Shown here one piece after another: positions 1,032 to 47,822 of a DNA stretch of 64,000 nucleotides. The stretch comes from Escherichia coli. GTDB taxonomy: Bacteria; Pseudomonadota; Gammaproteobacteria; Enterobacterales; Enterobacteriaceae. Every line of letters starts with the position of its first letter. The first letter of the stretch is position 1. The notes under the pieces were generated by a model. That model was not told the DNA's origin. It saw only the letters and a program-made list of their open reading frames with translations, and ran no database searches. The DNA lies in the NCBI RefSeq assembly GCF_048403405.1, contig NZ_CP183129.1; one strand, 5' to 3'. Position numbers and translations under genes: made by a program.

Positions 1032-1910
1032 ATGTTCACGGGAAGTATTGTCGCGATTGTTACTCCGATGGATGAAAAAGGTAATGTCTGTCGGGCTAGC
1101 TTGAAAAAACTGATTGATTATCATGTCGCCAGCGGTACTTCGGCGATCGTTTCTGTTGGCACCACTGGCGAGTCCGCTACCTTAAATCATGACGAACATG
1201 CTGATGTGGTGATGATGACGCTGGAGCTGGCTGACGGGCGCATTCCGGTGATTGCCGGAACCGGCGCTAACGCTACTGCGGAAGCCATTAGCCTGACGCA
1301 GCGCTTCAATGACAGTGGTATCGTCGGCTGCCTGACGGTAACCCCTTACTACAATCGTCCGTCGCAAGAAGGTTTGTATCAGCATTTCAAAGCCATCGCT
1401 GAGCATACTGACCTGCCGCAAATTCTGTATAATGTGCCGTCCCGTACTGGCTGCGATCTGCTCCCGGAAACGGTGGGCCGTCTGGCGAAAGTAAAAAATA
1501 TTATCGGAATCAAAGAGGCAACAGGGAACTTAACGCGTGTAAACCAGATCAAAGAGCTGGTTTCAGATGATTTTGTTCTGCTGAGCGGCGATGATGCGAG
1601 CGCGCTGGACTTCATGCAATTAGGCGGTCATGGGGTTATTTCCGTTACGGCTAACGTCGCAGCGCGTGATATGGCCCAGATGTGCAAACTGGCAGCAGAA
1701 GGGCATTTTGCCGAGGCACGCGTTATTAATCAGCGTCTGATGCCATTACACAACAAACTATTTGTCGAACCCAATCCAATCCCGGTGAAATGGGCATGTA
1801 AGGAACTGGGTCTTGTGGCGACCGATACGCTGCGCCTGCCAATGACACCAATCACCGACAGTGGTCGTGAGACGGTCAGAGCGGCGCTTAAGCATGCCGG
1901 TTTGCTGTAA
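1032..1910 (+). CDS. dapA: 4-hydroxy-tetrahydrodipicolinate synthase
   Basis: Track ORF 1014..1910 starts at TTG; ATG at 1032 gives [19 protein letters not shown]... (292 aa), class I aldolase DapA. Stop TAA 1908-1910. Confidence 0.95.
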
Positions 1911-22394: not shown

Positions 22395-24674
22395 ATGGAT
22401 GACCAGTTAAAACAAAGTGCACTTGATTTCCATGAATTTCCAGTTCCAGGGAAAATCCAGGTTTCTCCAACCAAGCCTCTGGCAACGCAGCGCGATCTGG
22501 CGCTGGCCTACTCACCAGGCGTTGCCGCACCTTGTCTTGAAATCGAAAAAGACCCGTTAAAAGCCTACAAATATACCGCGCGCGGTAACCTGGTGGCGGT
22601 GATCTCTAACGGTACGGCGGTGCTGGGGTTAGGCAACATTGGCGCGCTGGCAGGCAAACCGGTGATGGAAGGCAAGGGCGTTCTGTTTAAGAAATTCGCC
22701 GGGATTGATGTATTTGACATTGAAGTTGATGAACTCGACCCGGACAAATTTATTGAAGTCGTCGCCGCGCTTGAACCGACCTTCGGCGGCATCAACCTCG
22801 AAGACATTAAAGCGCCAGAATGTTTCTATATTGAACAGAAACTGCGCGAGCGGATGAATATTCCGGTATTCCACGACGATCAGCACGGCACGGCAATCAT
22901 CAGCACTGCCGCCATCCTCAACGGTTTGCGCGTGGTGGAGAAAAACATCTCTGACGTGCGGATGGTGGTTTCCGGCGCGGGTGCCGCAGCAATCGCCTGT
23001 ATGAACCTGCTGGTAGCGCTGGGTCTGCAAAAACATAACATCGTGGTTTGCGACTCAAAAGGCGTTATCTATCAGGGCCGTGAGCCAAACATGGCGGAAA
23101 CCAAAGCCGCATATGCGGTGGTGGATGACGGCAAACGTACCCTCGATGATGTGATTGAAGGCGCGGATATTTTCCTCGGCTGTTCCGGCCCGAAAGTGCT
23201 GACCCAGGAAATGGTGAAGAAAATGGCTCGAGCGCCAATGATCCTGGCGCTGGCGAACCCGGAACCGGAAATTCTGCCGCCGCTGGCGAAAGAAGTGCGT
23301 CCGGATGCCATCATCTGCACCGGTCGTTCCGACTACCCGAACCAGGTGAACAACGTTCTTTGCTTCCCGTTCATCTTCCGTGGCGCGCTGGACGTTGGCG
23401 CAACGGCTATCAATGAAGAGATGAAACTGGCGGCAGTACGCGCGATTGCAGAACTGGCCCATGCGGAACAGAGTGAAGTGGTGGCTTCAGCTTATGGCGA
23501 TCAGGATCTGAGCTTTGGTCCGGAATACATCATTCCAAAACCGTTTGATCCGCGCTTGATCGTTAAGATCGCTCCTGCGGTCGCTAAAGCCGCGATGGAG
23601 TCGGGCGTGGCGACGCGTCCGATTGCTGATTTCGACGTCTACATCGACAAGCTGACGGAGTTCGTTTACAAAACCAACCTGTTTATGAAGCCGATTTTTT
23701 CCCAGGCTCGCAAAGCGCCGAAGCGCGTCGTTCTGCCGGAAGGGGAAGAGGCGCGCGTTCTGCATGCCACTCAGGAACTGGTAACGCTGGGGCTGGCGAA
23801 ACCGATCCTTATCGGTCGTCCGAACGTGATCGAAATGCGCATTCAGAAACTGGGCTTGCAGATCAAAGCGGGTGTTGATTTTGAGATCGTCAATAACGAA
23901 TCCGATCCGCGCTTTAAAGAGTACTGGACTGAATACTTCCAGATCATGAAGCGTCGCGGTGTCACTCAGGAACAGGCTCAGCGTGCGCTGATCAGTAATC
24001 CGACAGTGATCGGCGCAATCATGGTTCAGCGTGGCGAAGCCGATGCAATGATCTGCGGTACGGTGGGCGATTATCATGAACATTTTAGCGTGGTAAAAAA
24101 TGTCTTTGGTTATCGCGATGGCGTTCACACCGCAGGTGCCATGAACGCGCTGCTGCTGCCGAGTGGTAACACCTTTATTGCCGATACCTACGTCAATGAC
24201 GAACCAGACGCAGAAGAGCTGGCGGAGATCACCTTGATGGCGGCAGAAACTGTTCGTCGTTTTGGCATTGAGCCGCGTGTGGCTCTGTTGTCGCACTCCA
24301 ACTTTGGTTCTTCTGACTGCCCGTCGTCGAGCAAAATGCGTCAGGCGCTGGAACTGGTCAGGGAACGTGCACCAGAACTGATGATTGATGGTGAAATGCA
24401 CGGCGATGCAGCGCTGGTGGAAGCGATTCGCAGCGACCGTATGCCGGACAGCCCTTTGAAAGGTTCCGCTAATATTCTGGTGATGCCGAACATGGAAGCT
24501 GCCCGCATTAGTTACAACTTATTGCGCGTTTCCAGCTCGGAAGGTGTGACTGTCGGCCCGGTGCTGATGGGCGTGGCGAAACCGGTTCACGTGTTAACGC
24601 CGATCGCATCGGTACGTCGTATCGTCAACATGGTGGCGCTAGCCGTGGTTGAAGCACAAACCCAACCGCTGTAA
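22395..24674 (+). CDS. maeB: NADP-dependent malic enzyme (malic enzyme core + phosphotransacetylase-like C-terminal domain)
   Basis: 759 aa, [44 protein letters not shown]... Confidence 0.93.
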
Positions 24675-44289: not shown

Positions 44290-44312
44290 GCGTTTCTGAT
44301 TCATTGATTAAA

Positions 44313-44345
44313 GGCCAGCCAGTAACACAACTGACTGGCCTTTTT
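44313..44345 (+). terminator. intrinsic terminator after yfeX
   Basis: GGCCAGCCAGT-aacaca-ACTGACTGGCC (one mismatch) followed by TTTTT. Confidence 0.7.
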
Positions 44346-44374
44346 ATTACTGCTTTAACGCCGCATACACTTGA

Positions 44375-44464
44375 TCAACTACTTTCTGTCAGAACAGGGT
44401 ATTTTGCGGCGCTGACGCTACAGCTGACAGCCAGCAGAGAAAGATAGAGCATTGTCCGTTTCAT
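44375..44464 (-). pseudogene. 29-codon ORF with Sec-signal-peptide-like sequence, 4 bp downstream of murP; possible remnant of the gene occupying this position in K-12 (yfeW/pbp4B)
   Basis: Minus-strand ATG (complement of 44462-44464) gives MKRTMLYLSLLAVSCSVSAAKYPVLTESS then TGA. Assignment as a remnant is an inference; I cannot verify similarity to YfeW. Confidence 0.35.
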
Positions 44465-44468
44465 GATA

Positions 44469-45893
<1,425 letters not shown>

Positions 45894-45896
45894 GGG

Positions 45897-46793
45897 TTAT
45901 TCCTTGTCTAAAACCTGACGAATAAAGCCGCCGTGTTGATCCAGGCGTTTTTTAGCTTCTGCGGCATCGAGATTTTTCAGCACCATCACAATGGCCGTTT
46001 TACAGTTGCGCTCGCAGGCAACCAATGCCGCTTCCGCTTGCTCTGCGCTACATCCGGTAGCGTTTTTGACGATATTGACCTGGCGCACATGCAGTTTTTC
46101 GTTGGTGGCGACCACATCGACCATCAGGTTGCCGAACACTTTGCCGGATTTAATCATCAGCCCGGTGGAGAGCATATTGAGCACCAGTTTCTGCGCTGTA
46201 CCTGCTTTCATCCGCGAAGAACCGGTAACCACTTCGGCACCTACAATCGGTGTAATGGCAAACTCTGCGGTGGTTGAAACGGCGCTCCCCGGATTACAGG
46301 AAATTCCCACTGTGCGGCAACCGAGCTGGCGGGCGTATTCCAGTCCGGCAATCACATACGGCGTACGACCGCTGGCGGCAATACCGACCACCACATCCTG
46401 TGCCGTTAAATTAATATTTTTCAGATCGTTAACGCCGCCTTCCCGGCTATCTTCCGCGCCTTCCACCGCGTGCTGAATGGCATATTCGCCGCCAGCAATC
46501 AAACCAACTACCAGGCCCGGTTTCACGCCGTAGGTCGGCGGACATTCACTGGCATCAAGAATACCCAGACGACCAGAGGTCCCCGCACCGATGTAAATCA
46601 GACGGCCGCCGCCGCTCACCTGGGCGTGAATAACATCGATCGCCGCTGCAATATCCGGCAGTACGCGCTCAACGGCGAGTGGTACGGTTTTATCTTCATC
46701 GTTGATAATCCGGCACATTTCCAGCGTCGAAACGCGGTCAATTTCAGCCGAGGCGGCATTCGAGCCTTCGGTAATCATCTTTTCAAGTTGCAT
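45897..46793 (-). CDS. murQ: N-acetylmuramic acid 6-phosphate etherase
   Basis: 298 aa SIS-domain protein, [26 protein letters not shown]...; 3 bp upstream of murP. Confidence 0.92.
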
Positions 46794-46964
46794 CAGTGGT
46801 GACCTTAGTATTCACAATCAAATAATTGCATATTGATGGAATCATATATCTCAATTTGCTAGTTTTAAAGGAATCATTGAGTCTGAAATCACAGAGTGTG
46901 AAGAGCGTCAAAGGGCAAAATCCGTGTGCTATGCTGCGCGCAGGATGTGGTGAGGGAGTGGAAG

Positions 46965-47822
46965 ATGTTGTACCTGACGAAAATACGCAATGCGGAAAGT
47001 GAATTTACCGAGAACGAGCAAAAAATTGCTGACTTTCTGCGGGCCAACGTGAGTGAGCTGAAATCCGTCTCTTCGCGCAAGATGGCGAAACAGCTCGGCA
47101 TCAGCCAGTCGAGTATTGTGAAGTTTGCCCAGAAGCTCGGTGCGCAAGGATTTACTGAATTGCGTATGGCGTTAATTGGCGAATACAGTGCTAGCCGGGA
47201 GAAAACGAATGCCACGGCGCTGCACCTGCACAGTTCGATTACCAGTGATGATTCGCTGGAAGTGATTGCCCGCAAATTGAATCGCGAAAAAGAGCTGGCG
47301 CTGGAGCAAACCTGTGCGTTGTTCGACTACGCGCGGTTGCAAAAAATCATTGAGGTCATCAGTAAAGCACCGTTTATCCAGATAACGGGCCTGGGTGGGT
47401 CGGCGCTGGTGGGGCGCGATCTTTCATTCAAACTGATGAAAATTGGTTATCGTGTGGCCTGTGAAGCTGACACGCATGTACAAGCCACCGTTTCCCAGGC
47501 GCTGAAAAAAGGCGATGTACAAATCGCTATCTCTTACAGCGGCAGTAAAAAAGAGATTGTCTTGTGCGCCGAGGCAGCGCGAAAGCAGGGGGCAACGGTG
47601 ATTGCCATTACCTCATTAACCGATTCCCCGCTGCGGCGGCTGGCGCATTACACCCTCGATACCGTTTCTGGCGAAACCGAATGGCGCAGCTCGTCGATGT
47701 CCACCCGCACGGCGCAAAATTCTGTTACCGATTTACTGTTTGTTGGCCTTGTGCAACTCAATGATGTGGAGTCATTGAAAATGATTGAGCGCAGCAGTGA
47801 GCTAACGCAACGCCTGAAATGA
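46965..47822 (+). CDS. murR: RpiR-family repressor MurR
   Basis: ATG 46965: [32 protein letters not shown]... (285 aa), HTH + SIS domains; divergent from murQP. The track start is GTG at 46926. Confidence 0.9.

Follow-up and report, generated by a model that had tools for sequence, protein, structure and literature searches.

Predicted MurR boxes and a predicted CRP site in a minor allele of the murQ/murR control region of Escherichia coli

Introduction

The divergent genes murQ and murR are separated by a gap of 171 bp (46794-46964) in the 64-kb stretch of Escherichia coli DNA that was analysed here and is termed the window, and two features of this gap attract attention, namely a short perfect palindrome and an octamer present in two copies. 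The locus raises the question of which of these sequences is the functional unit in the control of the two genes. A preliminary description had regarded the interval as a divergent murQ/murR control region, and the gene identities and coordinates obtained in the present analysis agree with that view.

The murQP/murR switch itself is already known: repression by MurR, which is relieved by MurNAc-6-phosphate, and activation by CRP were described in 2008, and the structural basis followed in 2022. MurR represses murQP as well as its own gene and is released by MurNAc-6-P, and the tetrameric protein binds two neighbouring inverted repeats in the murR-murQ intergenic region, for which the published EMSA was conducted with the MG1655 intergenic fragment only as a whole (PMC9177960). 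CRP and MurR are listed as the regulators of murP, on the authority of Jaeger & Mayer 2008, J Bacteriol 190:6598 (listing in PMC3141248).

It is very probable that the interval corresponds to the known regulatory region of the MurNAc-catabolic divergon, with two MurR boxes and one CRP site, and that the window carries a minor allele of it. The correction gained from the comparison is that the functional unit would be the plain GGAATCAT repeat rather than the eye-catching palindrome. Several by-products might also be of use to specialists, including the comparative MurR-box consensus GGAAT-N5-ATTCC, the third box that Salmonella arizonae and Citrobacter carry close to the start of murR, and the finding that about a fifth of the complete E. 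coli genomes lack murR.

Genes and Sequences Compared

The first gene of the regulated operon is murQ, which is followed by murP (44469-45893). The CAT that represents the murQ start codon on the plus strand has its last base at 46793; the ATG of murR lies at 46965 (Table 1). The murR product was matched by the Pfam domains HTH_6 (1e-27) and SIS (2e-22) and by the NCBIfam MurR equivalog with 639 bits, compared with a cut-off of 408. Positions 46700-47060 of the window are 100% identical to E. coli strain 1190, in which RefSeq names murQ, murP, and murR.

Orthologous loci were retrieved by searching representative genomes with MurR, and 16 murR upstream regions from at least seven genera, including Escherichia, Citrobacter, Salmonella arizonae, Pluralibacter, Enterobacter, Lelliottia, and Huaxiibacter, were compared. 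Column invariance was read from an alignment of 13 sequences from at least six genera, with Huaxiibacter being covered by the anchored table only, and the distant Lysobacteraceae and other matches (L017-L023, 27-30% identity) were left out of the comparison. The coordinates of the boxes and transcription start sites (TSS) given below derive from conservation and not from published footprints; a full-text literature search for the site sequences returned nothing relevant, and other literature searches yielded no site coordinates.

Table 1. Features of the murQ/murR locus and of related loci; coordinates refer to the window unless a locus (L) is named.
Feature	Coordinates	Strand	Basis or remark
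murQ (MurNAc-6-phosphate etherase)	45897-46793	-	ORF list, RefSeq annotation of strain 1190, Pfam SIS/GKRP domains
Tentative murR promoter, GTGACC-16-AATAAT, TSS near 46833	46799-46826	+	Promoter scan, weak consensus match
Predicted MurR Box 1, GGAATCATATATCTC	46838-46852		GGAAT invariant, weight-matrix rank 2 in window
Putative murQ promoter P1, -35 TTAAAA (46868 to 46863), 16-nt spacer, -10 TATGAT (46846 to 46841)	46841-46868	-	Promoter scan
Predicted MurR Box 2, GGAATCATTGAGTCT	46870-46884		Conservation, weight-matrix rank 1 in window
Candidate murQ-strand promoter P2, -35 TTCACA, 18-nt spacer, -10 AATGAT in Box 2	46873-46902	-	Promoter scan
Palindrome TCACA-GAG-TGTGA, TCACAGAGTGTGA	46889-46901		Left arm, Box 2-CRP linker; right arm, CRP half-site
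Predicted CRP core TGTGA-AGAGCG-TCAAA, TGTGAAGAGCGTCAAA	46897-46912		Consensus match and conservation
-10-like element TATGCTGC, preceded by TGC	46930-46937	+	Conservation
murR, RpiR/AlsR-family repressor (HTH_6 and SIS)	46965-47822	+	Pfam, NCBIfam, RefSeq annotation
361-aa signal-peptide protein	L010 213-1298; L014 177-1262	-	Divergent from murR
Third MurR-type dyad	L010 1463-1477; L011 1463-1477; L007 and L009 near 1470-1490		Upstream of murR

Direct Repeats and Predicted MurR Boxes

The two copies of GGAATCAT, which had been placed 1-2 nt off in the preliminary description, are located exactly at 46838-46845 and 46870-46877, and they are the only copies in the 64 kb when both strands are searched. 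They extend to a 13-nt direct repeat (TTGATGGAATCAT and TTAAAGGAATCAT) with a spacing of 32 nt. A repeated octamer as such was obtained by chance in 18% of the shuffles of the region and in 29% of the 171-nt segments of the same 64 kb; it is the conservation in other genera that raises the GGAATCAT repeats, together with the right arm of the palindrome, above chance.

Three conserved blocks at fixed spacing, termed Box 1, Box 2, and the CRP-type site, were recognized in the 16 orthologous regions. The invariant columns of the 13-sequence alignment are those of GGAAT, a few positions of Box 2, TGTGA, and TCA.A, and the columns that vary freely belong to the 6-nt CRP spacer and the 11-nt linker between Box 2 and the CRP site; the block layout of Huaxiibacter in the anchored table is alike. 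In all 16 genomes, the start of the GAATCAT core in Box 1 (46839) and the start of the CRP core (46897) are separated by 58-59 nt, and the spacing from Box 1 to Box 2 is 32-33 nt. This layout is kept whether or not murQ is the gene divergent from murR, which is the case in Escherichia and two Citrobacter loci only, the corresponding gene being murP in C. sedlakii.

Elsewhere, that is, in Salmonella arizonae, the Citrobacter locus L011, Lelliottia, and related genera, the divergent gene encodes a signal-peptide protein of 361 aa. A Pfam search with this protein gave no match, and its similarity to the PhoE porin was faint (E = 2e-6, far below the cut-off). Given that the Box 1/Box 2/CRP architecture is kept in front of it, the protein may be a MurNAc-related porin under the control of MurR.

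Box 1 harbors the first GGAATCAT together with a -10-like TATGAT on the minus strand, and Box 2 harbors the second GGAATCAT, the two box centres being 32 bp apart, which is about 3 helical turns. The GGAAT of Box 1 is shared by all 13 aligned sequences from at least six genera; the pattern of this box across the orthologues reads GGAATCATATAT.. (46838-46852), and Box 1 of Salmonella arizonae is the perfect dyad AAGGAATCATATATTCCTT. Within Box 2, GAATCATTGAGTCT is invariant across Escherichia and the two Citrobacter loci that retain murQ. The box consensus deduced from the relatives, in which perfect dyads occur, is GGAAT-N5-ATTCC, of which the right half-site ATTCC is matched at just 3/5 positions in each of the boxes of the window. 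Since both boxes fit this dyad, they agree with the published finding of two inverted repeats bound by MurR; two adjacent inverted repeats are indeed present in the murR-murQ gap, and they are conserved together with murR across species and stand out within the 64 kb.

A search of the window with the raw pattern GGAAT-N5-ATTCC, allowing at most two mismatches, gave 38 matches against 26.5 expected and was too unspecific, so it was replaced by a weight matrix that had been built from the non-Escherichia boxes alone. When this matrix was scanned over the 64-kb window, Box 2 came first (18.0 bits) and Box 1 second (15.5 bits). The suggestion that the GGAATCAT copies are candidate MurR operators is supported in that they form the left half of conserved 15-bp boxes with the top two matrix scores in 64 kb, and each GGAATCAT is predicted to comprise the left half-site and three spacer bases of one MurR box. 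The third-best score belongs to a perfect consensus match, GGAATACATCATTCC, at 23522-23536 inside a 759-aa ORF (22395-24674, plus strand), which is probably a chance occurrence.

The predicted boxes resemble the operators of the RpiR/AlsR family (HexR, RpiR, AlsR), in which the regulator likewise combines HTH_6 with SIS and the sites are likewise short, AT-rich, and dyad-symmetric sequences beside the regulator gene, whereas the half-site GGAAT and the 5-nt spacer of MurR were deduced in this analysis. As a separate observation, Salmonella arizonae and Citrobacter possess a third perfect MurR-type dyad (GGAATTAATGATTCC or GGAATTTTTGATTCC) just before the murR start; Escherichia, which has an alignment gap there, is without it.

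Predicted CRP Site and Palindrome

A CRP site is constructed around the core TGTGA-N6-TCACA, in which the spacer comprises 6 nt and rarely 8 nt. The predicted core in the interval is centred at 46904.5, within a 22-bp site that extends from 46894 to 46915, and matches the consensus at 9/10 positions. It is one of 3 such sites in the 64 kb; as 1.7 sites with at most one mismatch are expected there, the count alone is not significant. The order and spacing of the half-sites are those of CRP, and the half-sites TGTGA and TCA.A are invariant in the 13 sequences from at least six genera, where the site takes the form TGTGA-N6-TCA(A/T)A, while the spacers drift and include AGAGCG, GGGCAA, GGGCTA, TGTTTG, and CATCTG. 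Such a combination of invariant half-sites with a drifting 6-nt spacer is the classic signature of a CRP site.

The palindrome TCACAGAGTGTGA had been described as a perfect 5-3-5 inverted repeat at 46889-46901, with coordinates that proved exact, and had been interpreted as a pair of inverted CRP half-sites with 3-nt spacing. For CRP this order and spacing are wrong, and the left arm varies in the orthologues. The proposed connection with CAP holds for the right arm, since TGTGA (46897-46901) pairs with TCAAA (46908-46912) at 6-nt spacing, and fails for the left arm, which lies in the linker; the GAG between the arms sits in the flank of the 22-bp CRP site.

At the left arm (46889-46893), TCACA is shared by just the window and Escherichia sp. 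E1V33 (L006); the sequence is TCGCA in K-12, L003, L005, and L008, TTGCA in L004, and unrelated in the other genera. E. whittamii and E. coli SCPM, which carry the nearest alleles, also read TCGCA, which indicates that a single substitution in this lineage, G to A at 46891, produced the perfect dyad. The linker of the window thereby yields a perfect palindrome, in contrast with that of K-12, where the same palindrome is imperfect. The K-12 allele contains a different dyad, ACACTC-GCA-GAGTGT, at the same place with its centre 3 bp away.

On this basis, the idea that TCACAGAGTGTGA is itself an operator, the dyad being bound by MurR or by another dimeric regulator, is given very little probability. 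It draws on the perfection of the dyad, which is the sole match of the exact string in the window (0.04 expected) and lies inside a control region, and on the finding that a random linker yields a dyad of at least 5 bp overlapping TGTGA in only 1.4% of cases, although such dyads, dissimilar to each other, are present in two Escherichia alleles. The left arm, however, is unconserved even among the closest alleles, the two Escherichia dyads with their centres 3 bp apart are not one element, and the sequence bears no resemblance to the GGAAT-N5-ATTCC box. Perfect 5-3-5 palindromes also number 80 in the window, from which 0.2 are expected per 171 nt (about 1.9 for spacers of 0-8), and the exact 50-mer around this one is present in just 118 of the 5426 complete E. 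coli genomes. Neither conservation of both arms nor occurrence beyond chance was thus found for TCACA-N3-TGTGA as an independent operator. As the dyads of the window and of K-12 have neither arms nor centre in common and were found in no sister allele or other genus, they were treated as coincidences. As judged by this conservation, the palindrome is not supported as a functional unit and probably arose by coincidence around a CRP half-site.

A second CRP site that uses the left arm (TGAGT-N6-TCACA, 8/10) was rejected, as sites of this quality occur at chance level in the window (19 against 26 expected) and the sequence is unconserved. This candidate, at 46878-46893, would overlap MurR Box 2. 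It is very improbable that the G-to-A change at 46891, which is carried by about 2-3% of the E. coli genomes, is non-neutral in that it makes such an overlapping CRP-type site or a new dyad for a different regulator. If it were, the interplay between catabolite control and MurR repression at murQP would be altered in this lineage, and Escherichia alleles would repeatedly have evolved a dyad partner for the CRP half-site.

A further reading, in which the palindrome forms a small RNA hairpin in the murR 5' leader or in an antisense overlap, has a negligible probability and was rejected. Transcription from the murR promoter probably runs through the region and the arms can pair, but the minimum free energy is -3.2 kcal/mol, the z-scores against shuffles are near 0 (+0.43 and +0.02, with -0.61 for K-12), no Rfam match was obtained at E up to 1, and the arms are unconserved, without covariation.

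Promoters and Proposed Regulation

The putative murQ promoter P1 would start transcription near 46834, and its -10 hexamer lies inside Box 1. The same sigma-70 promoter geometry recurs with better hexamers in other genera, as TTGAAA-16-TATGAT, TTTACA-16-TATGAT, and TTGCGA-16-TATGAT. Activating CRP sites are known at class I positions near -61.5, -71.5, etc., exemplified by lac (-61.5) and malT (-70.5), and at class II positions near -41.5. With respect to P1, the CRP site of the window would be centred at -70.5, and a promoter of the P1 type would put it at -70.5 or -71.5 in 10/14 sequences and at -69.5 in an eleventh. A 9/10 core about 70 bp upstream of the deduced start and a weak -35 hexamer would be shared with class I CRP promoters; the locus differs from these in that its murQ start was deduced here and that the probable transcription unit of murR also includes the CRP site.

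The tentative murR promoter listed in Table 1 would face the murQ promoter and is conserved within Escherichia only. Inspection by eye of the non-Escherichia loci for a common plus-strand murR promoter left of Box 1 revealed none that was convincing, so the assignment stays tentative. A second element on this strand is TATGCTGC, which takes the form TATCCTGC in Salmonella arizonae and Citrobacter. It is kept in Escherichia as well as in these two taxa, 33-34 nt past the CRP site start, and TGn usually precedes it. It looks like the extended -10 of a murR-proximal promoter, which would not fit the face-to-face arrangement mentioned next.

Jaeger & Mayer (2008) reportedly described CAP as activating the murQ promoter from an upstream class I site, with the murQ and murR promoters facing each other and CAP as a possible roadblock to the transcription of murR. 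All three features are consistent with the layout deduced here. In the proposed scheme, a MurR tetramer would occupy the two 15-bp boxes on one face of the helix, with Box 1 overlying the -10 TATGAT of the putative leftward murQP promoter and Box 2 adjoining its -35, and bound MurR would therefore exclude RNA polymerase. MurNAc-6-phosphate would free the DNA of MurR, a step that has been published, and cAMP-CRP at 46904.5, about 70 bp upstream of the predicted murQ start, may exert class I-type activation. Transcription from the tentative rightward murR promoter would have to pass the MurR boxes and the CRP site, so proteins bound there might also hinder expression of murR. The published K-12 logic matches this scheme as well, with a MurR tetramer on two inverted repeats, MurNAc-6-P as the inducer, and CRP as the co-regulator.

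The candidate promoter P2 leads to another interpretation of the conserved TGTGAA, which would mainly serve as the -35 of a promoter with its -10 AATGAT in Box 2; this -35, TTCACA when read on the murQ strand, is complementary to the CRP half-site. Each GGAATCAT would accordingly supply a (T/A)ATGAT -10 for one of two murQ promoters, and CRP, if acting at all, would overlap the -35 near -38.5. This possibility is considered unlikely, despite some evidence for it. TTCACA-18-AATGAT scores 9/12 and is found in Escherichia and, in a weaker form, in L011 and L016; its start near 46866 would lengthen the overlap with a murR transcript initiated further to the left, which fits the facing promoters mentioned above. 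Several murQ promoters have in addition been reported (PMC3141248). It leaves unexplained, however, the invariant TCA.A exactly 6 nt away across a freely varying spacer. The 18-nt spacer and the position -38.5 deviate from the optima of 17 and -41.5, the geometry of P1 is more widely conserved with better hexamers, and the 2008 abstract is said to speak of class I. P2 as a second murQ promoter is nevertheless compatible with the favoured model of two MurR boxes and a CRP site that acts on P1.

Binding of CRP to a murQP regulatory region has also been observed in Vibrio cholerae, which differs in that HapR co-binds at a position overlapping the CRP site, MurR not being mentioned (PMC10328515).

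Allelic Variation and Absence of murR

By sequence comparison, the window carries a minor natural allele of the known murQ/murR regulatory region. An identity of at least 99% over 361 nt was found in 37 of the 5426 complete E. coli genomes; with the 50-mer around the palindrome, 4080 genomes fall into the 90-95% identity band, and the examples listed match as K-12 does. The gene arrangement of K-12 (MG1655) is like that of the window. Alignment with MG1655 demonstrated that both GGAATCAT copies and their surroundings are kept: Box 2 and TGTGAAGAGCGTCA are identical, whereas Box 1 differs by 1 nt. The right CRP half is TCAAA in the window and TCATA in K-12, for which the predicted CAP site is TGTGAAGAGCGTCATA, and the linker arm differs as described above (TCACA versus TCGCA). 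The intergenic length is 171 bp in the window compared with 163 bp in K-12 (2545610-2545772), and the murR-proximal stretch of about 50 nt is largely different between the two.

This stretch (46913-46958) exists in two very different forms within E. coli, and the form of the window is common to Escherichia sp. E1V33 and E. whittamii, a sharing that hints at recombination. A perfect 10-bp palindrome, CTGCGCGCAG, at 46934-46943 is confined to the window-type allele, and K-12 has an 8-bp deletion there. The locus is unusually polymorphic within E. coli, the DNA of murR (46965-47822) being just 90-95% identical to the window in 2939 genomes.

At the other end of the operon, the window differs from K-12 in the absence of yfeW downstream of murP. 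The gene (pbp4B) is missing at 44290-44468, where only an 87-bp pseudogene fragment stands between murP and yfeX; in K-12 yfeW is the third gene of the murQ operon (PMC5061867). The layout past murP without yfeW is the same in E. coli NGF1.

Finally, murR is absent from 1048 of the 5426 complete E. coli genomes, about a fifth. In NGF1 (L024 3595-3873, equivalent to 46887-47822 of the window), ucpA directly follows murQ and approximately the last 20 nt of murR are left, so that murQP is presumably free of MurR control in this strain. A degenerate Box 1 (GGGATCATATATCC), Box 2 (GGAATCATTAAGTCC), and a CRP-like sequence (TGTGATGTCACTGAAA) are still present in NGF1 without murR.
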